From Promethearchaeota archaeon (GTDB lineage: Archaea > Asgardarchaeota > Hermodarchaeia > Hermodarchaeales > Hermodarchaeaceae): 64,000 nucleotides of DNA. Of this stretch, positions 250 to 30,709 are shown piece after piece. Positions within the stretch are counted from its first letter, which is position 1. Each line of letters starts with the position of its first letter. The translations under genes were made by a program, and so were the position numbers. Under the pieces are notes generated by a model, which made no database searches, was not told the DNA's origin, and saw only the letters and a program-made list of their open reading frames with translations. The stretch is from assembly GCA_048938385.1 (NCBI GenBank), contig JBHLMG010000009.1, positions 1 to 64,000 on the forward strand, written 5' to 3'.

Positions 250-1443
250 ATGGGTGAAAAACTCCGATTCAAAAATGAACGCGAAGTCAAACTGGGCCAT
301 ATCAAAGGCGATGTGGCGATCGAGAACTGTCCTATCATCGTCCCTGAAAAAGGAGCAGAAATTGTCATCGAAGGCGCATTGGAAATCCGCGGACATACGG
401 ATATCGAAGGATCGCTAAAAGCTGATTATCTTGAAATCGATGGGCGAAATACCTCTGAAATTCATGGAGATTTATCCATCGCTCGTTCTATCGATGTTCG
501 AAGAGGACAACTAACCGTCACCGGGTCAGTGTCTGCCAGCAAAATTAATGTTCACGCTGCCTTATCGGTAGGCAAGAATTTGCAAGCTACGAAAGTGTCA
601 ATTGGGGGTGCGCTCAAAGTAGGGGGAGCTGCTACCGTTGAAGACATCAATGTAGGCGGCGCGGTAAAAATCGAAGGGAAAATTGATTCTAAGGTTCTCA
701 ATGTCGGAGGGGCTGTAAAATGCAATATTGGTATCATCGGCAAAGTCAATGTGGGTGGCTCCTTTAAGGCAGAGGGGGCTGTTGAAATCGGCGAAATTGA
801 TGTCGGTGGCGCCGTGGTCGTGGGACCAGGCTCCAAAGTCCTCACTATTGATGTAGGTGGCAGTTTCAAGAGCGAAGGCGATATAATTTTTGAAGAATTG
901 GATGTTGGCGGTGCAGCGAAATTTGAAGGAGAAGCAAAAGGAAAATCCGTAGATGTCGGTGGATCCGTTAAGGCTGAACAATCGCTCACTCTAACAGGGA
1001 AGCTTGATGTGGGTGGTGCCATTTTTGTAGGAACAGATCTTTTTGTGGCTGAAGAGATTGAAGTTGGTGGCTCTTTGCGAGCTGGTCGGAAGATTGAATC
1101 ACCACGAATTGATATTGGTGGCTCGATTGAGGCGGCCCACATTAAGGCTGCTAAGGAATTTCAGATTGGGCGTCGTGGGGAAGTGAGGGGGTTTGTAGAA
1201 AGCTCTGACATTATCATATCAGAATCATCGCGTGGTGGTTCGTTTTATGGTGATTCCATCCGTGTGGAAGAGCGAGCTCGGGTGAAAAACCTCTATGGGC
1301 GGGTTATTTACCTTGAACGGGATGTTCGCGTCGAAGGCGACATCTTGTATACAGAACAGTTCGAGGCAGAACCCGGAGTTTATTTCGGAAAAGAACCGCA
1401 ACAAGTGAAAACTCTACCTAAGGCTGAAGATTTGCTTAAATAG
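250..1443 (+). CDS. Bactofilin-like (polymer-forming cytoskeletal) beta-helix repeat protein
   Basis: About 11 coils of [DNES]-[VI]-G-G spaced 16-18 aa apart, Val/Ile/Gly-rich; C-terminal end resembles bactofilin-type beta-solenoids. Confidence 0.7.
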   Translation: MGEKLRFKNEREVKLGHIKGDVAIENCPIIVPEKGAEIVIEGALEIRGHTDIEGSLKADYLEIDGRNTSEIHGDLSIARSIDVRRGQLTVTGSVSASKINVHAALSVGKNLQATKVSIGGALKVGGAATVEDINVGGAVKIEGKIDSKVLNVGGAVKCNIGIIGKVNVGGSFKAEGAVEIGEIDVGGAVVVGPGSKVLTIDVGGSFKSEGDIIFEELDVGGAAKFEGEAKGKSVDVGGSVKAEQSLTLTGKLDVGGAIFVGTDLFVAEEIEVGGSLRAGRKIESPRIDIGGSIEAAHIKAAKEFQIGRRGEVRGFVESSDIIISESSRGGSFYGDSIRVEERARVKNLYGRVIYLERDVRVEGDILYTEQFEAEPGVYFGKEPQQVKTLPKAEDLLK

Positions 1444-1563: not shown

Positions 1564-2583
1564 TTGGTTGAACCTGCTCACACCTGCTCTAGTAAAATTC
1601 AACTCAGTCAAGACATGACGGTTACACCCTTGGCTGCGGAGAGCCTGGGAGTTCGAAGTCTTGCGGCCTACATTCAGACAAGTGACACAACTATTCTTAT
1701 TGATCCAGGGGTTGCTCTCGGCTTCCGTGATGGATATCATCCTCATCCAAGAGAATACCAACTGTTGGCTGATTTCCGAGAAAAAATCCATCGCTACTCT
1801 TCAGCTACTGATGTGATTGTTGTATCTCATTATCACCATGACCATTTCCAACCCTTCTATCAGAATTATGCTTATTTTTGGTCTACACCTGAGGAGGCGT
1901 CTCTTCTGTATAATGGTCGGCGTGTTTGGTGTAAGGATATTCGCTCCAATATCAACTATTCTCAACAAAGCCGTGGATATCATTTTGTTCGAAAAGTACG
2001 GAAGATTGCTCAGTCTGTTGAATACGCTGATGGACGGGCCATGAAGTTCAACCAGACGCTAATTCGGTTTTCTCCACCTGTCCCTCATGGGGAGAAGAAC
2101 ACCAAGCTTGGCTGGGTCATTATGACCGCGATCCGTTGTGGTGATTTTTGCATGGTCCATGCCTCTGATACACAAGGTCCGATGGAAAAGCTGACGACCG
2201 ACTGGATCCTTCGCCAGAAACCCGATGTTGTTATGATCGCTGGTCCACCCACTTATCTTGCGCCAGATCGGGTTGGTTCCGCGGTCATTGTAGCTGCTGC
2301 TGAGAATCTCAAAACTTTGGCAGTTGAGATTCCTATGGTAATCGTTGACCATCATCTCCTCAGGGATTCAAATTGGTCGGACTGGTTAGATCCAATACGC
2401 CAACATGCAAGAGACCATGGGAATCAGCTGATGACGGTGGCTGAAGTCTTAGGAGTAGAGGAGAACCTTCTAGAGGTGAAGCGTGAAAGTCTTTACCGGC
2501 AAACGCCGGTCACTCCTGCATTTGAAGATTGGGTTAGGCAAGTTCAAGGTAATCGAATTCAGACTCCACCACCCTTACCATGA
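1564..2583 (+). CDS. Metallo-beta-lactamase-fold hydrolase (archaeal UPF0282-like)
   Basis: PLAAESLGVRS, IDPG, SHYHHDH, HASDTQG and DHHLLRD motifs; true start may lie downstream (MTVTPL). Confidence 0.8.
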   Translation: MVEPAHTCSSKIQLSQDMTVTPLAAESLGVRSLAAYIQTSDTTILIDPGVALGFRDGYHPHPREYQLLADFREKIHRYSSATDVIVVSHYHHDHFQPFYQNYAYFWSTPEEASLLYNGRRVWCKDIRSNINYSQQSRGYHFVRKVRKIAQSVEYADGRAMKFNQTLIRFSPPVPHGEKNTKLGWVIMTAIRCGDFCMVHASDTQGPMEKLTTDWILRQKPDVVMIAGPPTYLAPDRVGSAVIVAAAENLKTLAVEIPMVIVDHHLLRDSNWSDWLDPIRQHARDHGNQLMTVAEVLGVEENLLEVKRESLYRQTPVTPAFEDWVRQVQGNRIQTPPPLP

Positions 2584-2589
2584 GATAAA

Positions 2590-3261
2590 TCAGAACACGC
2601 TTTTTCTAGTCGGGGATGGTTGGTAAAAGGGACCGTGTATTGGGAAGATGACTTCTCGAAATGCTTCAGCGTATTCGCATCCTGCCTGTACGCCTCGAAG
2701 ACGGGCTTTTTGCACATTGAATGCAAGGTAAAAGTCGTTGGTTTTTTGTAGCTGACTTTGATACGCTCGAATTGCTTGCTCCTTCTTTTCCATCGTTTCT
2801 GTGATGTCTACAAATATCGTAGGCGCTGGAAACAAGGAGTTGATTTCCATGCTCAGTAATCGTTTGGGACGCCAAGCTAGCTCCTTGTATTGCGTGGAGT
2901 GTCCTGCCCATTCAGCTGCACGCAAGACTGCCTGATGCACAATTCGGTGATCTGGATGATAATCGAACTCACTGTGGGAGATAATCACTTCAGGTTGAAT
3001 TTGTTGTATCACAGGAATAATCGTATTCGCGGTTTCAGTTATAGTGAAGGCAAGTTCAGGACCTTCAATGGCCACGACTTTGGCACCTAGCTTTCCACAA
3101 GCGGTCTGTAGTTCCTGGTGTCGTGCGGGATTACCAGATAAACAACAGACTGTCACGGAGTTACCCCGTGTGGTTTCTAAGGCAATACTACCTCCGCATC
3201 CAAAGGTTTCATCATCGGCATGGGCACCAATGACCAGTAAACGCTTTGACGATTCAGGCAT
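2590..3261 (-). CDS. bshB: PIG-L/LmbE-family deacetylase, BshB-like
   Basis: AHADDE metal motif, HPDH motif, AYQSQ, YAEAF; divergent from bshA. Confidence 0.75.
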   Translation of the reverse strand: MPESSKRLLVIGAHADDETFGCGGSIALETTRGNSVTVCCLSGNPARHQELQTACGKLGAKVVAIEGPELAFTITETANTIIPVIQQIQPEVIISHSEFDYHPDHRIVHQAVLRAAEWAGHSTQYKELAWRPKRLLSMEINSLFPAPTIFVDITETMEKKEQAIRAYQSQLQKTNDFYLAFNVQKARLRGVQAGCEYAEAFREVIFPIHGPFYQPSPTRKSVF

Positions 3262-3375
3262 AACGAGTAGATACAGCTTTCCTCATCTAAAGGTTTCCCT
3301 GTTTGGTAGGATGAGGAAGATTTCACCAAAGGTAACACATAAGGGTGGGAATGACAGGGTGCCAAAGGATTAATC

Positions 3376-4482
3376 ATGCGAATAGGCATCACGTGCTACC
3401 CTGGTGTTGGTGGTTCTGGTCTTCTAGCAACGCGCCTTGGTGTTGAACTCGCTAAACGCAATCATGAAGTCCGGTTCATCACTTACGAAGTACCATTTGA
3501 ACTGCAAGAAGGAATTCATGAGAATGTCAAAGTTGACCTAGTCGATGTGTTAGATTACCCACTTTTTCGCTACCCCCCATATACCGTAGCATTAGCATCC
3601 CGAATGGCTCAAATTGCTCAAAAACATCAACTCGATCTCTTGCACACCCACTATGCTATTCCCCACGCGCTATCTGCCTATGTTGCGCACCAGATGACCG
3701 GAATCCCATACATCGTAACATTGCACGGTTCAGATGTACATACCTTAGGCGCTGACCCAGCTTACCAGCCTGCCACACGGTTTGCCGTAGAAGCTGGTAA
3801 TGCCGTCACCTGCGTTACCAAGCATATCTGTCAAACAGCGGAACAGACCTTAGGAATTCGGTGTAAAATCGAACCCATAACGAATTTCACTGATCCAGAC
3901 CTTTTCAAACCTAACGCTTGTGAATTTCCAGTCGTGAATGGAAAACGCCAGTTAATCCATGTATCTAATTTTCGTCCAGTCAAGCGTGTAAGTGACCTTG
4001 TGACCGCCTTTGCACAAATAGCTGATGAGGTGCCTGATGTTGAACTGCTCTTACTTGGCGATGGACCTGAACGTCCTGGTGTCGATCGGCTAATTCGGAA
4101 ATTTGAGCTTAATAATCGTATCCGGTGTCCTGGGTTCAAGCGAGATGTCTATCAATACCTTCGATGCGCCTCGGCTTTTGCCTTAAGCTCCGAATTAGAA
4201 GGTGCTCCACTTTCATTACTTGAAGCGATGAGCTGTGGATTGCCCGTAGTAGCTACTGAAGTGGGAGGGATTCCTGAGATTGTAAAAGATGGAGAAAATG
4301 GGTTGCTTGTCCCCTTTGGAGATATTGATGCCTTAGCAGAAAAAATGTATGTACTCCTTACGGATCGAATATTGGCTAGTCAGTTGGGCGCACAGGCCCG
4401 GAAAACGATACTCGAAAATCACACAGCCGAAAAAGTGGTCCCCCAATATGAAGCGATTTACGAAGGAGTGATTCACGACTAA
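3376..4482 (+). CDS. bshA: GT4 N-acetyl-alpha-D-glucosaminyl L-malate synthase
   Basis: MRIGITCYPGVGGSG, YPLFRYPPY, HTHYAIPHA, TLHGSDV and HVSNFRPVKRV are characteristic of BshA. Confidence 0.9.
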   Translation: MRIGITCYPGVGGSGLLATRLGVELAKRNHEVRFITYEVPFELQEGIHENVKVDLVDVLDYPLFRYPPYTVALASRMAQIAQKHQLDLLHTHYAIPHALSAYVAHQMTGIPYIVTLHGSDVHTLGADPAYQPATRFAVEAGNAVTCVTKHICQTAEQTLGIRCKIEPITNFTDPDLFKPNACEFPVVNGKRQLIHVSNFRPVKRVSDLVTAFAQIADEVPDVELLLLGDGPERPGVDRLIRKFELNNRIRCPGFKRDVYQYLRCASAFALSSELEGAPLSLLEAMSCGLPVVATEVGGIPEIVKDGENGLLVPFGDIDALAEKMYVLLTDRILASQLGAQARKTILENHTAEKVVPQYEAIYEGVIHD

Positions 4483-4523
4483 TCAAGACCCTGTGTTTTT
4501 CGTGAGCAATCTTGGTGGTTAGT

Positions 4524-6293
4524 CTATTTCGCATTCGGGTTATTTGGTAAGAAGTAAGTGGCTGAGGAAGGAGTGTAGGTTTGGTAATGGCTAAGCAAGC
4601 GTGGAAAGTAATTTTGTGGACCTAAAGAAATGGCTCCGTCTATCCATGCAAAGCTTACTTCTTGGCCAAGGCGTTCGGGCGCATATCGTCCAAACATTTG
4701 TGAGAGGTAGGTTTGGAGTATTTGTCGTTGACGCGTGTAGCGACCCACCATGACTCGGTATGACTCTCTTATCTTAGCATCGGGAGAATCGCGCTGTTGA
4801 CGAATAGCCTCATTTCGGTCTTGTTCTAACTGTTGTTCTGCTTGAATGAGTTGTTCAACCGAATGGGCGATGAGTTCTGCACTGGCACCAAAAAGGGATC
4901 GCACTACTCCACTATTTTTTTCTTCAGATGCGGTAACGATGGCTTTCCCATAAAATCGAAGCTCTTTGAGGTCAAGAGGCATTATTCCTTCCTGCTCAAG
5001 TATTTGGGCTTGCTGCGTGGTCCATGGATTACCATAGTATTGCCGGGTGTATCGGAAGAATATTGGAGCCAAGCTATCAAGAGCCTCAAGGGCTGGTGAC
5101 ACTTGGGCATGGTAGGAAGTCTCTCCGGATCCGCCGATGTGAAGAATTATAGGAGTATAACTCTGCACAAGAAAAGCTCGAGTATCTACACGAGGAGAAA
5201 GAAATTCTGCCCAGTCAGAGAGATCCGGTGAAGTGGGTTTGAGTTCTAGCGTATGGGTGACCTTGCATTTGGGGCAACGCGCACTGATTTCCATTCTCAT
5301 AGCTGATTCATTAGCTAAAGTGGGGTCTAATCTGGTTCGATTACAACCAGCTGTCGGGCATTCAAGTTGGAAAGGAACATAGTCTTCTGTCCGGTGCCCG
5401 ATTCCAGGTTGATAACCTAGCTGTTGGAGCTGTTCCGCAGCTTGGTTAAGTGCCTGAATATAGCGAGAACGATTTCGAACATGGATGAGAAATTCAAAAG
5501 CTGGAAGCATGAGAAGGCGGAGCGTGGGATGGGAAAATTGTTGAAAAAGAATTCCACTATCTTGTGACAAGTTAGCAAGCTGCATCCAAATTAATAGGCT
5601 CCAATCTGATATTGTCTTTGCTTTGTCAAAGGCGTGTTGAATGATTTTGATGACCGATTGAACCCGATCCTCATACTCTGCCTTCTGGTGTGATGAGGAT
5701 TTTGTTACTAATTCATGGTAGGTTGAAGCGATTTTCTCCAGAGCTTGATTCAACCATGAACGCGAGGGTAGGGGCAGTGCATGCATAGGCGATTGTCGAA
5801 ATTCACGGGGCACATTAAATGAGAAACTAAGACCCCGTGGACCGGGACTAGGAAGGTGAATGACAGTCAGCTCTTTCTGTTCATGATCATGATCGCCAAC
5901 AAACATAATTGATGCGGTGTTCTGAAGCATGGCAATCTGGCCGATAGCTGCCAACTTGTTGATAACCAATCCAGGTCCACCAAGCAGGCTAGGTTGGTGA
6001 CCTGCCTCAACAGCTGCGTGTTGGGATTCGAGCAATTCGAGTCGATGGGTCACCATCGGCGTGAGCATCTCGTGCTTCTGATGAATTTCCTTAATTGTCT
6101 GACACAATACTATAAGCCGCTCATGAGTAAAGAGCGGTTGCTTCTCTTCACGGTACACAGCGGAGAGGGGTCGACTCAACGCAATAGCGTCGTTTACATT
6201 CAATGGGATAGATCCCCAAAATTGAAGAGCTGCCTCGTTACCATCGAACACGAATGAAGCATACAGTTTAGACGGGGCAGTGGTTGAAGTCAC
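4524..6293 (-). CDS. bshC: Bacillithiol cysteine-adding enzyme BshC-like protein
   Basis: AGHQPSLLGGPGLVINK, GDHDHE, LSPRVDTR and IGGSGETSYHAQ match BshC motifs (GQQxxLxxGPLYxxxK, EDHD, GGPGExxYxxQ); adjacent to bshA. Confidence 0.75.
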   Translation of the reverse strand: MTSTTAPSKLYASFVFDGNEAALQFWGSIPLNVNDAIALSRPLSAVYREEKQPLFTHERLIVLCQTIKEIHQKHEMLTPMVTHRLELLESQHAAVEAGHQPSLLGGPGLVINKLAAIGQIAMLQNTASIMFVGDHDHEQKELTVIHLPSPGPRGLSFSFNVPREFRQSPMHALPLPSRSWLNQALEKIASTYHELVTKSSSHQKAEYEDRVQSVIKIIQHAFDKAKTISDWSLLIWMQLANLSQDSGILFQQFSHPTLRLLMLPAFEFLIHVRNRSRYIQALNQAAEQLQQLGYQPGIGHRTEDYVPFQLECPTAGCNRTRLDPTLANESAMRMEISARCPKCKVTHTLELKPTSPDLSDWAEFLSPRVDTRAFLVQSYTPIILHIGGSGETSYHAQVSPALEALDSLAPIFFRYTRQYYGNPWTTQQAQILEQEGIMPLDLKELRFYGKAIVTASEEKNSGVVRSLFGASAELIAHSVEQLIQAEQQLEQDRNEAIRQQRDSPDAKIRESYRVMVGRYTRQRQILQTYLSQMFGRYAPERLGQEVSFAWIDGAISLGPQNYFPRLLSHYQTYTPSSATYFLPNNPNAK

Positions 6294-7507
6294 TGCTCAG
6301 ACTCCTCCCGCGGTTGTCGTCGAATAGCAAATCCCACAAGGCAACTAAGAAGGGATAAGGTACCAATAAGTGCGATTAATGTAGCAACATTCGTCGCAAA
6401 ATAAGCGAAATCTACTAAGGGTATTGAGCCGAGAGAGGTCCATTCTTGAAAATCGGTTCGGTGAAGCTGATAAGCAAAGAGGTTAGCATATTCAGTACGC
6501 CGCGTAGCGATGTAGTCAGTGGCCACGATTTGCCATAATTGGACGAAGGGAAGGTTCGAGGCGTAAAGGGATTCGTAATAGGTCTTGGATGGCTCAACAC
6601 CTACTCCACTAGCGGTGAGATCGAAAGGCAGCCAGCCCCATGGGGGAACATAGACCATAGCCCACCCATGACCGATGGCGTTTTTCCAGTCCACATAGAG
6701 GTATGCCTCTTCGGCTATTGACCCCCAAATGAATCCATTTGTGCGAGCGCCGTCTTGGAACCAGTGACCGGTTGTTAGGTAACAGGGGATTCTTAAAATT
6801 CGGAGCAGAGCAATAAGTAAATTCGATTGGTCATCACAGTCACCAATTTGACTAACTATGGTTTCCTCTGGATACTGTGGTTCAGTAATACCTGTTGATC
6901 GAATGATGTTTGACTGTATCCACCGAATTGCTGAATAAACGAGGGCGAGCACATTATCCTGGGTTGCGTTCGCCAGGCTCCTCTGAACATCCATGGCAAT
7001 GTCTACAAGAGAGGAATTCCATGTTTTCCACAGCGAAGTTCCTCGTGTATACCAAAGGTAATCATCTGTCCCAATCTGGTCCTCAATGTCATCGAGGGTA
7101 CCTGATTGGATGACACTAATTACTGGAAGACTTGGTCGATGATCGAGTACCGTGAAGAGCCACTCTTCCTCCCACCGAATCCTATCTTGGGGCAATAAGG
7201 TAGTAGTTAAATTCAATCGTATTCTTGGATTTCCATCGCTGTCTGTTCCAAAACCGATTGGTTCGATGGATTGGTTGTTGTAACTGAAATCGAAGTTCAG
7301 TTGTTCACAGGTTTGCCAAGAAGTGTTTCCGATGTAATCCCAATAGGCTGTTATTGGAAGGGATTGGTTTCCTGAAACGATTAGCGAACCTGAGAAGCTC
7401 ACTCGCCAGTGATGGACGTATTGAAAAGCTGATGTGGGGTGTGGCACTAAAGCTAGTAGGATGAGAAGAAGTAACAGTGTAACTATCCATGGACGATATT
7501 TCGACAT
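6290..7507 (-). CDS. Secreted, C-terminally anchored transglutaminase-like protein
   Basis: Signal peptide; GDCDD...GHGW...W-LPFDLT Cys-His-Asp triad; C-terminal TM helix plus RRQ; stop overlaps the bshC start (GTGA). Confidence 0.8.
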   Translation of the reverse strand: MSKYRPWIVTLLLLLILLALVPHPTSAFQYVHHWRVSFSGSLIVSGNQSLPITAYWDYIGNTSWQTCEQLNFDFSYNNQSIEPIGFGTDSDGNPRIRLNLTTTLLPQDRIRWEEEWLFTVLDHRPSLPVISVIQSGTLDDIEDQIGTDDYLWYTRGTSLWKTWNSSLVDIAMDVQRSLANATQDNVLALVYSAIRWIQSNIIRSTGITEPQYPEETIVSQIGDCDDQSNLLIALLRILRIPCYLTTGHWFQDGARTNGFIWGSIAEEAYLYVDWKNAIGHGWAMVYVPPWGWLPFDLTASGVGVEPSKTYYESLYASNLPFVQLWQIVATDYIATRRTEYANLFAYQLHRTDFQEWTSLGSIPLVDFAYFATNVATLIALIGTLSLLSCLVGFAIRRQPREESEQ

Positions 7508-7787: not shown

Positions 7788-8270
7788 ATGAAATTAGGCG
7801 AAGTTGCCAATCATGTGATTGCTTTTTTGCAGAATCATACTGACCAGGAATTTACTGCTAATACGCTCCTCATGCATATAGGCTTGCCACTTAAAGAAAA
7901 ACGAAGGCTTTACGATGTGATTGAAGTCCTGTCTTGCGCAGGGCTTGTAGATATTCGCAAGGATTCACGAAAGCGATACTTCAGATGGAAACTACCCACT
8001 CTTTCCCCTACACCGTCTGAAATGAACCTTGAATTACCAGCTGATCCGTTATTTCAAGAAGCTGGTACTATTCTTCATCTTCTCCTACACCTTGGGCCAG
8101 GGGCGTTTCAAGAGCTGAGCAATGATTCATCGCTCTCCATGATAGAGCGAGATATCAAACGCACCGTATGGGGTGCTAATGCTGTTAGCGTTGTGCGCGT
8201 ATCTCTTCAAAATCAACAGGGTCGAGTTTTAAAAGAGACCTCCCATGGGACACTTCAAGCCGAAGTCTAA
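7788..8270 (+). CDS. Winged-helix DNA-binding protein with E2F/DP-family signature
   Basis: KRRLYDVIEVLSCAGLV...YFRWK matches the E2F/DP recognition helix KRR[IL]YD[IV]xNVLxxxGL[IV]...W[KL]; N-terminal LGEVANHVIAFLQ resembles E2F helix 1. Confidence 0.7.
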   Translation: MKLGEVANHVIAFLQNHTDQEFTANTLLMHIGLPLKEKRRLYDVIEVLSCAGLVDIRKDSRKRYFRWKLPTLSPTPSEMNLELPADPLFQEAGTILHLLLHLGPGAFQELSNDSSLSMIERDIKRTVWGANAVSVVRVSLQNQQGRVLKETSHGTLQAEV

Positions 8271-18285: not shown

Positions 18286-18843
18286 TTAAATTTCCCTTTC
18301 CAGTTCTTCCACCATTTCCTTGTATCGTCGGTGGACATCTTTACCGCCAAGGATTTTATCAAAGCGCTCGAAATCTTTTTTCATCTTTTCTTTTTCTCCT
18401 TGGCTTAGCACATCAACCATAGCTGGAAAGACTTCATCTTCTTCTCTTTGAAAGTGAGGTTGCATAATTTCAAGATATTCTTTTACGGATTTTAGAATAT
18501 TCGTTCTGGCTTCTGGGGTCCCGCGGTGGTAAGCGCGAATTCCCTTGTGCATTTCATTTGCTAGGTCAAGAGCTGTGATGTGTTCCTCGATTAAGACAGC
18601 AATATCGTCTTGGACATCATCGGGGAGGTCGGTATCATGTTCACGCATCTGTTCGAAGAGAATATCTTCTTCCTTGCTGTGATGAATGACATCAGCATAA
18701 CCACGAACAAACTCCACGATTTTCCAAAAAACAGTGGCTGGGACTTCCTTTTCATCTTCGAGTTTATCACGCACTTTTTCGATAATGGAAAAGACACGTT
18801 CGACGAGTTTGTGTTCATCAAGTAAAATGTCGATTGGGTACAT
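18286..18843 (-). CDS. Hemerythrin (HHE cation-binding) domain protein
   Basis: LLDEH, HHSKEEDILF, LIEEH, HFQREEDEVFP; start reassigned to 18843. Confidence 0.85.
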   Translation of the reverse strand: MYPIDILLDEHKLVERVFSIIEKVRDKLEDEKEVPATVFWKIVEFVRGYADVIHHSKEEDILFEQMREHDTDLPDDVQDDIAVLIEEHITALDLANEMHKGIRAYHRGTPEARTNILKSVKEYLEIMQPHFQREEDEVFPAMVDVLSQGEKEKMKKDFERFDKILGGKDVHRRYKEMVEELEREI

Positions 18844-18987
18844 GTGAGGATTCCTCCGTGTCCAGAGTGTACCTCCCTTGTTACCATCCTCTTCAAAAAA
18901 CTTGCCTTCTACCAAAAGCATACCATTTTTAGTGTAAAACACACCTTCGGAGCCAATCAATTATTCTCAAAACCTCAAATTTGGCAG

Positions 18988-19976: not shown

Positions 19977-20477
19977 CTATTTCATTCGTTTACGCATCGC
20001 ATCGAGGTCTTCCATAATGGCTTCCAAATCTTCTTCGTGTTTAATTTCGTCTTGCATGATTTTGTAGGCAAGATGCTGGGTTATTGCATCCTTTCCCTTC
20101 GTCATTTCTGCGATCTTGTAATAAACATCAATAGCACATTGTTCACCCTTGATATTCTGCTTTAAAATTGGTTCAACATAAGGGTCCTTCGGAACCTCAT
20201 AACCACAATTGGTTTTTGTAAGCCATTCAGATGGATTGAGGATTGGGGTGCCACCTAATTGGATGATTCGTTCAACTAGCATACCGGCGTGCTCTAGTTC
20301 TTCGTTAGCGTGTTCCCCAAGTTCACTTGCAACTAAATCACGCATTGGTCCTACTACGATCTTTGATCCGATCCAGTATTGGTAATAGGCTAACCATTCG
20401 TCGGCTAGTGCTTTATTAAGCCATTCAATGAGCTCTTCGATGTCGAGCTTGATGATTTCACGACCCTTTGTACCCAT
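19977..20477 (-). CDS. Dps-like / bacterioferritin-like protein (DpsL type)
   Basis: LNKALADEWLAYYQYW, EHANEELEH, RIIQLGG, GEQCAI, DEIKHE. Confidence 0.85.
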   Translation of the reverse strand: MGTKGREIIKLDIEELIEWLNKALADEWLAYYQYWIGSKIVVGPMRDLVASELGEHANEELEHAGMLVERIIQLGGTPILNPSEWLTKTNCGYEVPKDPYVEPILKQNIKGEQCAIDVYYKIAEMTKGKDAITQHLAYKIMQDEIKHEEDLEAIMEDLDAMRKRMK

Positions 20478-20765: not shown

Positions 20766-21260
20766 TTATTTCTCGCGTTGACCAAGTCTTGCATCGAGCA
20801 TGAATAAAGCACCCTTTTGATCGCCAATCTGTTTGAGTAGATCCGCGACTCGTTTAGTCTGCTCCTCTTCTTCTACTTGTTCTTCGTAGAACCAGTTGAG
20901 GAGAGGAATAGCGGACTTGTCGCCAAGTTTTTTGGCGAGTTCACCGATTTTGAAAATCCGTTCGGTGACGATTTTTTCATGCTCATAAGCATTCTCCCAA
21001 GCCGCACGGGCTGAATCCCATTCAGTGGCGGGACCTTTGATATCGGTGAGAATTACGCGTCCTCCCCGATCAGTTACATGTTCCCAAAACCGCATGGCGT
21101 GTGCATATTCTTCGCCTGCTTGGATTTTCATCCAATGAGCCATGCCAGATAGATTCTTGGATTCAAAATATGCGGCCATGGAAAGGTAAATGTAACCTGA
21201 ATATAGTTCGAAGTTAATTTGATCGTTAATTGCTTCTTGAAGTTCTTTACTAATTTCCAT
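20766..21260 (-). CDS. ftnA: Ferritin
   Basis: NDQINFELYSGYIYLSM, EEYAHA, HEKIVT, WFYEEQVEEE. Confidence 0.92.
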   Translation of the reverse strand: MEISKELQEAINDQINFELYSGYIYLSMAAYFESKNLSGMAHWMKIQAGEEYAHAMRFWEHVTDRGGRVILTDIKGPATEWDSARAAWENAYEHEKIVTERIFKIGELAKKLGDKSAIPLLNWFYEEQVEEEEQTKRVADLLKQIGDQKGALFMLDARLGQREK

Positions 21261-24923: not shown

Positions 24924-25430
24924 GTGTACTGCATGTCCTCACTGCTTCAAATCGGTCAAGTAGCTCCGCCTGTTAAACTCTATGATACCGCGTTTAACCT
25001 ACGGACTCTTAAAGAATTCAAAGGGCAAATCGTCGTCTTGGCCTTCTTCCCTGGGGCGTTTACTGCAGTGTGCACAAAGGAACTTTGCCACTTTCGAGAC
25101 AGTCTGGCCAACTTTGAATCCGTTAACGCTCAGGTTCTTGCTATTAGCGTTAACGACCCTTTCACGAACAAAGCCTTCGCTGAACAAAACCGTCTTACAT
25201 TTCCCCTTCTAAGCGATTACAACAGGGTTACCATCCGGGCTTGGGATGTGGTGCAACAAGGTATCGGTCCTCTTAACGATTATACAGTGGCTAAACGCGC
25301 AGTCTTCGTTATCAGTCCAGAGGGGTTCATTCGCTGGAAGTGGATAACTGATAATCCTGCAGTTGAACCACCTTATGGTGAAGTTCAACATGCGGTCGAT
25401 AACATCGGTCGAGGACAATCCGCTGATTAA
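24924..25430 (+). CDS. Peroxiredoxin (BCP/PrxQ-like)
   Basis: FPGAFTAVCTKELC (PxxxTxxC), LLSD, KRAVF. Confidence 0.9.
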   Translation: MYCMSSLLQIGQVAPPVKLYDTAFNLRTLKEFKGQIVVLAFFPGAFTAVCTKELCHFRDSLANFESVNAQVLAISVNDPFTNKAFAEQNRLTFPLLSDYNRVTIRAWDVVQQGIGPLNDYTVAKRAVFVISPEGFIRWKWITDNPAVEPPYGEVQHAVDNIGRGQSAD

Positions 25431-30202: not shown

Positions 30203-30709
30203 TCACTCGGAAGCTAATTCTTCTCTCAGTCTAAGTAAGTGTTGGAATTGCCACTCTCGTTCTTTTGCTACAGCTATGTATGTATCAGATGCGTTTGTGG
30301 CTCTATGGATGGCTTGTAAGGCATAAATTGCAGAACCAATAGAATGAGTTGGAACATGTGCGGTTGCCACTGCTTGACCTGCGGCACGAGCAGCAGAGCG
30401 GGCAGCATTATCTCTACCTACTTCGCGGGCAGCAGCATGGGAATCAAGTGAAGCCTGGCGAATAACCGCCATCTGAAACACCCCTGTATTGATCCATGTC
30501 TTGAGTGTTTCAATGGCTTTTCGAGGCCGTTGGTCTTCTGGATATTGTTCTTCAAAATATGGTAGAACACGCACAGCACAATCAATTGCCCAGGCTGCCA
30601 ATGTTTTATGGTTAGTTTTTTTCACAAGCTCTACAATTCTCTCATCTTTTCGGTAGTGTGTAAGTGAAAATTTTGGTTTCTTTTTTCGTGGTTCAACTTG
30701 CACATTCAT
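30203..30709 (-). CDS. Imm-5-like (putative immunity) domain protein
   Basis: LAAWAIDCAVRVLPYFE...DQRPRKAI...AARAAGQAVATAHVPTH. Confidence 0.75.
   Translation of the reverse strand: MNVQVEPRKKKPKFSLTHYRKDERIVELVKKTNHKTLAAWAIDCAVRVLPYFEEQYPEDQRPRKAIETLKTWINTGVFQMAVIRQASLDSHAAAREVGRDNAARSAARAAGQAVATAHVPTHSIGSAIYALQAIHRATNASDTYIAVAKEREWQFQHLLRLREELASE

Follow-up and report, generated by a model that had tools for sequence, protein, structure and literature searches.

A cluster of three adjacent genes (positions 2590 to 6293) in the first 64,000 nucleotides of contig JBHLMG010000009.1 (Promethearchaeota archaeon, assembly GCA_048938385.1; hereafter, the window) probably encodes a bacillithiol-type pathway that is native to a Hermodarchaeota-type archaeon and that makes bacillithiol or a near derivative of it. 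The original prediction had described this cluster as a bshB-like, bshA and bshC-like set in an archaeon, a description which was borne out: all three open reading frames were recovered with exactly the boundaries it had given, and each one matched the respective family. They comprise a candidate BshB, i.e., a PIG-L/LmbE zinc deacetylase of divergent type (223 amino acids; 2590–3261, minus strand), bshA (368 amino acids; 3376–4482, plus strand) and the gene for an archaeal-type BshC-like protein, the putative cysteine-adding enzyme (589 amino acids; 4524–6293, minus strand). The bshB-like gene and bshA are divergently oriented around a spacer of 114 bp (3262–3375), and bshA and the BshC-like gene are convergent and 41 bp apart. 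A search with the 589-amino-acid protein retrieved 15 further loci, all in Asgard metagenome-assembled genomes that carry the labels Hermodarchaeota, Hermodarchaeum or Promethearchaeota (Odin or Thor in two cases); in these Hermodarchaeota-type loci, identity to the window proteins was 75–85% for BshA, 60–66% for the deacetylase and 52–62% for the BshC-like protein.

In the pathway proposed here, BshA would join the N-acetylglucosamine (GlcNAc) of UDP-GlcNAc to L-malate, judging from its equivalog-level similarity. The PIG-L zinc deacetylase would then remove the acetyl group to give glucosamine-malate (GlcN-malate), as suggested by its intact catalytic motif and its conserved place beside bshA. 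Finally, the BshC-like enzyme would add cysteine onto the free amine to yield Cys-GlcN-malate (bacillithiol) or a very close derivative. This last step is suggested by the BshC fold, by the retention of residues common to the whole family, and by a gene that keeps its place beside bshA and co-occurs with it. Bacillithiol itself is a sugar-cysteine antioxidant for which measurements exist from bacteria only. In the archaeon, the product would act as a redox buffer of the cytoplasm and be a cofactor of DinB-type S-transferases. We know of no archaeal enzyme with which any of these chemical steps has been shown, nor of any archaeon in which a sugar-based low-molecular-weight thiol has been demonstrated.

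With regard to the first step, BshA scored 382.8 bits against the NCBIfam equivalog model TIGR03999, passing the cut-off of 273.7 bits by 109 bits, and the alignment placed residues 1–366 of 368 on model positions 1–374 of 375. End-to-end alignments were also obtained with the crystallised BshA proteins of Bacillus anthracis (2jjm/3mbo, 312.9 bits), Bacillus subtilis (5d00, 292.6 bits) and Staphylococcus aureus (6n1x/6d9t, about 270 bits), while the best GT4 glycosyltransferase other than BshA in the PDB comparison reached 78 bits only. Blocks conserved with the crystallised proteins included GITCYPxVGGSG, HYAIPHA, TLHGxD, SNFRxVKR and LLEAMxCGxP. By its sequence, the window protein is thus a canonical BshA, as very bacterial-looking as had been claimed, and it is the equivalog-level match that argues for GlcNAc-malate as the first intermediate. 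Orthologs in metagenome-assembled genomes of Promethearchaeota, Thorarchaeota and Bathyarchaeota are already called BshA by NCBI and JGI.

The deacetylase passed the PIG-L model PF02585 (70.7 bits; cut-off 28.2 bits), and its top matches in the PDB were BshB structures (6p2t, 56.9 bits; 2ixd, 53.2 bits), with a diacetylchitobiose deacetylase near behind them at 44.6 bits. In the Bacillus cereus numbering used in a review of LmbE proteins, the zinc ligands are His12, Asp15 and His113, to which Asp14, His110 and Asp112 are added, and contacts of Arg53 and Arg109 with GlcNAc-malate have been proposed from docking only (PMC4101496). When these residues were transferred to the window protein through its alignment with 2ixd, the zinc ligands were found to be kept as H14, D17 and H105, as were D16, H102 and D104, all of them in columns conserved in all Hermodarchaeota-type orthologs; the zinc and catalytic motif HxDD...HPDH is thus intact, and the equivalent of Arg53 was kept as well. 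Furthermore, the gene divergently adjoins bshA in the window and in every Hermodarchaeota-type locus that reaches it (14 of 15). Two further PIG-L paralogs are present in the host genome (2.48 Mb in 51 contigs, 89.8% complete). The third PIG-L protein of this genome, of 206 amino acids, has PylC-like ATP-grasp ligases on both sides (locus L060, G000:C24:19952-23281; open reading frames 107–1171, 1237–1857 and 1854–2909, minus strand), and these genes may represent a further pathway in the host, one for an amino-sugar amide.

For the BshC-like protein, membership of the family was supported at the level of both domain and fold. The protein passed PF10079, the BshC Rossmann-like domain, with 54.2 bits (gathering threshold 27) over residues 62–412. 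A profile built from 16 archaeal sequences had 4WBD, the B. subtilis BshC, as its sole significant match in the PDB (E 3.1e-20), and the same structure was the top Foldseek match of the AlphaFold2 model (pLDDT 79.1, pTM 0.80), with an E value of 2.3e-14 and TM-scores of 0.58/0.63 across 592 columns; the next matches were lysyl-, arginyl- and methionyl-tRNA synthetases of class I. Towards its C-terminus, the model contains a long helical hairpin (residues 461–532), modelled at lower confidence. We conclude from this model that the 589-amino-acid protein is predicted to have the BshC fold, which in 4WBD combines a Rossmann domain of class I synthetase type with a C-terminal coiled coil. Whether it would match BshC at all had been set beforehand as one test on which the prediction could fail; it matched in family and in fold, though under the equivalog cut-off discussed below. 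In addition, residues Q100, G106, K113, D136, E141, G388, E391 and Y394 are kept, and these are the majority residues in archaeal-type, canonical Asgard and other BshC sequences alike.

When 1.84 billion representatives were searched exhaustively with a profile, 2441 matches were returned, among which a close set of full-length members scored at least 220 bits and the remaining full-length sequences, in the range of canonical BshC, followed from near 110 bits. In a FastTree phylogeny of 119 full-length sequences, built without taxon labels, the close set fell on one side of a branch with an SH-like support of 97; as a test this is partly circular, because the close set was defined by score rank. 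The Hermodarchaeota-type proteins also carry a CX4C...CX2C arrangement (C312, C317, C340 and C343) in a confidently modelled beta-rich insert. Archaeal-type sequences in the tree set mostly have three to four cysteines in this stretch, and those of a second Asgard family, which we label f7, have two to three and show Asp or Glu where the fourth cysteine would stand. No such cysteines occur in the nine canonical Asgard sequences, nor, in the printed alignment, in B. subtilis BshC. Since cysteines also occupy three of the four columns in 20 of the 77 other representatives, however, the element is not unique to archaea.

A series of observations weighs against this reading of the cluster. Firstly, the deacetylase scored below the cut-off of the BshB1 model TIGR04001 (97.5 versus 182.5 bits) and was outscored on that model by the PIG-L paralog on contig C2 (111.1 bits, also sub-cut-off), which is why it is mainly the conserved place beside bshA that supports an assignment of this gene as BshB. 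The equivalent of Arg109, a residue whose role is itself docking-based, is Tyr in the window protein and in all 14 aligned Hermodarchaeota-type orthologs. Secondly, the 589-amino-acid protein reached 58.6 bits against the BshC model TIGR03998, far under a cut-off of 265.8 bits that is conservative, being passed by two of four matching control genomes. No pairwise phmmer match to B. subtilis BshC was obtained, nor any to the PDB at E values up to 1, and identity to B. subtilis BshC in the structural alignment was only 16%. Scoring against the three models, as had been recommended, therefore confirmed BshA above its cut-off and left the other two proteins below the equivalog cut-offs of BshB1 and BshC. 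Moreover, a reconstitution of the BshC reaction has not been achieved to date, even for the bacterial enzymes (PMC5790435), so that specificity for cysteine cannot be read from the sequence. Thirdly, in the 89.8%-complete host genome there was no match to BrxA/B (PF06491) or to YtxJ/BrxC (TIGR04019), and none over the cut-off to YpdA/Bdr (TIGR04018; best 64.8 versus 339.9 bits); among the control genomes, Bacteroides matched BshC and neither PF06491 nor TIGR04019. Finally, there has been no detection of bacillithiol in any archaeon (PMC7278568).

Other genes related to thiol metabolism were also searched for in the host genome. A GCS2-type gamma-glutamylcysteine ligase was not found there, and a CoA-disulfide-reductase-like oxidoreductase was present, below cut-off. 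The genome encodes four DinB_2 proteins, a family which includes bacillithiol S-transferases and which no archaeon in the control set matched.

These observations leave some room, though clearly less than for bacillithiol or a near derivative, for a thiol or amino-sugar conjugate that is related yet different and that would contain another amino acid, a modified cysteine (e.g., N-methyl) or an altered aglycone. Such a product would fit the changed deacetylase pocket, in which the Tyr at the Arg109 position (DYHPDH instead of DRHPDH) and the deletion of an 8-residue loop are invariant in 15 Hermodarchaeota-type sequences, as well as the separate branch of the BshC-like protein and the recycling enzymes of bacillithiol not found in the host. 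It would also fit the fact that, in other archaea, this same branch is coupled to an unrelated glycosyltransferase of family GT2. Its two most divergent members lie in clusters with a GT2 enzyme and not BshA (L055, 539–3910; L056, 3897–7809), where the partner beside the GT2 is a PIG-L gene in the former and an Amidohydro_2 gene in the latter, which implies that the branch tolerates different partners. On the other side, the equivalog-level match of BshA favors GlcNAc-malate as the first intermediate, the BshC-like protein retains those residues that do not vary within the BshC family as a whole, and, as far as an N-methyl form is concerned, bacteria need the separate methyltransferase NmbA for it (PMC12719100). 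Tentatively, and with marginally less conviction still, we suggest that the archaeal-type BshC and the Tyr-variant deacetylase together may provide a cysteine-glucosamine thiol other than bacillithiol, or bacillithiol by way of a different activated-cysteine donor, and that several Asgard lineages would have this as their main low-molecular-weight thiol. The original prediction had itself called BshC strongly diverged and its product bacillithiol or a variant, which agrees with the low TIGR03998 score and the separate branch.

As an additional observation on the GT2-containing loci, the cluster adjoins a gene for an Arf-family GTPase in both L056 and L057.

The distribution of BshC-like and bshA genes was examined in a sample of 400 Asgard genomes from 85 genera, with BshA counted per family at E values of 1e-40 or better. 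BshC-like genes were present in 166 of the 400 genomes and in 41 of the 85 genera, and BshA exceeded its cut-off in 146 genomes. Both genes were distributed over the same families (f1, f6–f9, f12 and f31–33 in our labelling), with BshC-like and BshA genes in 16/18 and 16/18 genomes of f1, 29/31 and 30/31 of f7, 11/12 and 12/12 of f9, 11/12 and 12/12 of f12, and 76/89 and 80/89 of the f31 group, respectively. In f7, a family with one member that NCBI labels Heimdallarchaeota, bshA once more directly adjoins the BshC-like gene in convergent orientation, with different flanks, and in f31 genomes the listed coordinates put both genes side by side. It was through co-occurrence and co-localisation with bshA that bshC was first identified (PMC5790435). 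Weak BshC-like matches in the absence of BshA were seen in f10, f11 and f19, which may correspond to the clusters with GT2 instead of BshA.

It is improbable, in the light of this distribution, that the three genes are neighbors and not one pathway, with GlcNAc-malate put to another use, the PIG-L enzyme having, for example, chitobiose or a glycolipid as its substrate, and the BshC-like protein being an unrelated ligase. Adjacency within the locus is, by itself, weak evidence, given that the whole 12-kb neighborhood is syntenic in Hermodarchaeota and that the gene for an unrelated, probably extracellular transglutaminase-like protein is coupled even more tightly to the BshC-like gene; the PIG-L protein, too, matched diacetylchitobiose deacetylase nearly as well as BshB (44.6 versus 53–57 bits). 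What speaks for a common pathway is that bshA again lies beside the BshC-like gene in another Asgard family, where the flanks differ, and that both genes share their family-level distribution over the 400 genomes.

The block is also native to the Hermodarchaeota-type lineage and under purifying selection, and is not a mis-binned bacterial fragment. In all 15 Hermodarchaeota-type loci, as far as the contigs extend, the gene order is bactofilin, PRK04286, bshB-like, bshA, bshC-like, transglutaminase-like, E2F/DP, PDCD5-like and M28, and it is this shared archaeal neighborhood and gene order in 15 genomes, taken together with the ortholog identities, that excludes contamination. Bacterial DNA mis-binned or mis-assembled into an archaeal genome can thus be dismissed as extremely improbable: even though BshA is about as near to Bacillus BshA (313 bits) as to that of another Asgard family (276–303 bits), the block is flanked by genes of archaeal or eukaryote-like type (for PRK04286, a dsDNA-binding protein resembling PDCD5, and an E2F/DP winged helix), G+C is uniform across the region (0.45–0.47), and the 15 genomes with the same arrangement have differing accession prefixes and contigs of up to 232 kb.

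In comparison with the BshA-BshB1/B2-BshC systems of B. subtilis and B. anthracis as well as S. aureus (3MBO/5D00, 2IXD/6P2T and 4WBD), the same three enzyme families are found in the window. The deacetylase keeps the His-Asp-His zinc site as well as the catalytic Asp and His, the BshC-like protein shares with 4WBD the fold, the C-terminal helical hairpin and the family-invariant residues, and bshA adjoins a deacetylase gene, as it does in the bshA-bshB1 operon of B. subtilis. In contrast to the BshC of these bacteria, however, the window protein is approximately 50 residues longer and carries the four-cysteine element, in addition to its low identity and separate branch, and the deacetylase differs from their BshB in its Tyr and its shortened loop. 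The host is an archaeon in which BrxA/B, BrxC and Bdr were not found, and the order is divergent and convergent instead of that of a single operon. Taken together, the sequence comparisons indicate that the cluster represents, in divergent archaeal form, a pathway known from bacteria, with two of its three enzymes on divergent branches.

A second arrangement within the same phylum offers a useful contrast. In the Asgard family f12, a bshC-bshB-bshA operon (L025-L035, including one f24 genome, G286) encodes the same three functions, but its three genes are co-directional, its BshC scores 375–389 bits and thereby exceeds the cut-off, and its BshB is canonical and keeps the Arg (DRHPDH). In the tree, the f12-type BshC proteins group with one another at a support of 100 and separately from the archaeal-type branch of the window, and the operon looks like a separate, more recent acquisition of bacterial type within Asgard. 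The clusters of other archaea that combine GT2, PIG-L and BshC-like genes, partly with an amidohydrolase (L055-L057), belong to the same archaeal-type BshC branch as the window and have, in L055, an adjacent PIG-L gene; yet an unrelated GT2 replaces the true BshA of the window, and their product is less predictable for that reason. Mycothiol synthesis by MshA-MshB-MshC in Actinobacteria follows the same logic, from a GT4 glycosyltransferase through a PIG-L deacetylase to a cysteine ligase resembling class I aminoacyl-tRNA synthetases. Nevertheless, the MshA, MshB and Mca models scored far lower on the window proteins (63.9, 32.9 and 37.8 bits, respectively), and MshC was only a remote fold match of the BshC-like model (rank 45 in Foldseek).

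The possibility of bacillithiol synthesis in archaea has been raised before, by Rawat and Maupin-Furlow in 2020, who compiled 39 BshA and 39 BshC matches to archaea in InterPro, mostly from Asgard, and proposed such synthesis as possible (PMC7278568). The GenBank names of the Hermodarchaeota-type orthologs also include "bacillithiol biosynthesis BshC", next to "PIG-L deacetylase family protein" and "transglutaminase-like domain-containing protein". Of the novelty that had been claimed for the cluster, the lack of any detection of the thiol in archaea therefore stands, while the pathway idea was already published and the names already deposited, so that the window adds detail and not a discovery. 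A RefSeq-based survey from 2025 nevertheless stated that the pathway is present in no archaea (PMC12719100), which indicates that the point has not been widely absorbed; the survey probably missed these genes, as metagenome-assembled genomes and a divergent BshC fell outside its criteria.

Should the pathway be functional, Asgard redox biology would include thiols of the bacillithiol type, considering the 146 genomes with BshA over its cut-off. Asgard lineages are the closest prokaryotic relatives of eukaryotes, and the pathway, if true, would bear on how relatives of the eukaryotic ancestor handle oxidants. The archaeal-type BshC would, in addition, represent a second and very distant version of an enzyme whose reaction still awaits reconstitution, and it could help to identify the missing substrate.

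Immediately next to the cluster, a transglutaminase-like protein of 405 amino acids is encoded at 6290–7507 on the minus strand, upstream of the BshC-like gene and in translational coupling with it. Its TGA stop overlaps the GTG start of the BshC-like gene in a GTGA of 4 nucleotides, as read from the sequence, and this GTG is preceded, at a distance of a few bases, by a GGAGG site. The protein matched PF01841 with 43.4 bits; its N-terminus is hydrophobic, a hydrophobic helix lies at the C-terminal end, NxS/T sequons are numerous, and the C224/H280/D296 triad is invariant. It is thus predicted to be extracellular and membrane-anchored, and probably stands outside the pathway. Strong matches (E 1e-94 or better) were confined to the Hermodarchaeota-type family (15 of 18 genomes); of the others, one was found at 34% identity in f4 and the remainder were weak, domain-level matches, with none on the BshC-bearing contigs of other families. 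A role as a missing partner of BshC was therefore rejected, on the grounds of the probable extracellular location, the restriction of strong matches to this family and the lack of such a gene beside BshC elsewhere.

In the 114-bp spacer, an alignment of 11 Hermodarchaeota-type intergenic regions revealed two conserved blocks. One of them, the 22-nucleotide block AACACATAAGGGTGGGAATGAC at 3334–3355 on the plus strand, lies approximately 20 nucleotides upstream of bshA and is conserved among the Hermodarchaeota-type loci; it could be a promoter or leader element. Neither block qualified as a regulon motif, as the 22-nucleotide block occurs once in the 2.48-Mb genome and the second was not above control. 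Scans for tRNA genes and Rfam elements returned none in the window.

The window also contains genes for a hemerythrin (18286–18960), two ferritin-like proteins (19977–20477 and 20766–21260) and a peroxiredoxin (24924–25430). Of the redox-stress genes to which the original prediction had drawn attention, the peroxiredoxin, ferritin and hemerythrin genes are present, but they lie 12–19 kb from the cluster and are not part of it; they constitute an oxidative-stress theme in the window that is separate from it. At 30203–30709 on the minus strand, a protein of 168 amino acids showed a strong Imm-5-like immunity-protein domain (PF21805, 143.8 bits), which is unexpected in an archaeon. Finally, a bactofilin-domain protein of 397 amino acids (250–1443, plus strand) and an E2F/DP winged-helix protein of 160 amino acids (7788–8270, plus strand) are conserved members of the Hermodarchaeota-type neighborhood.

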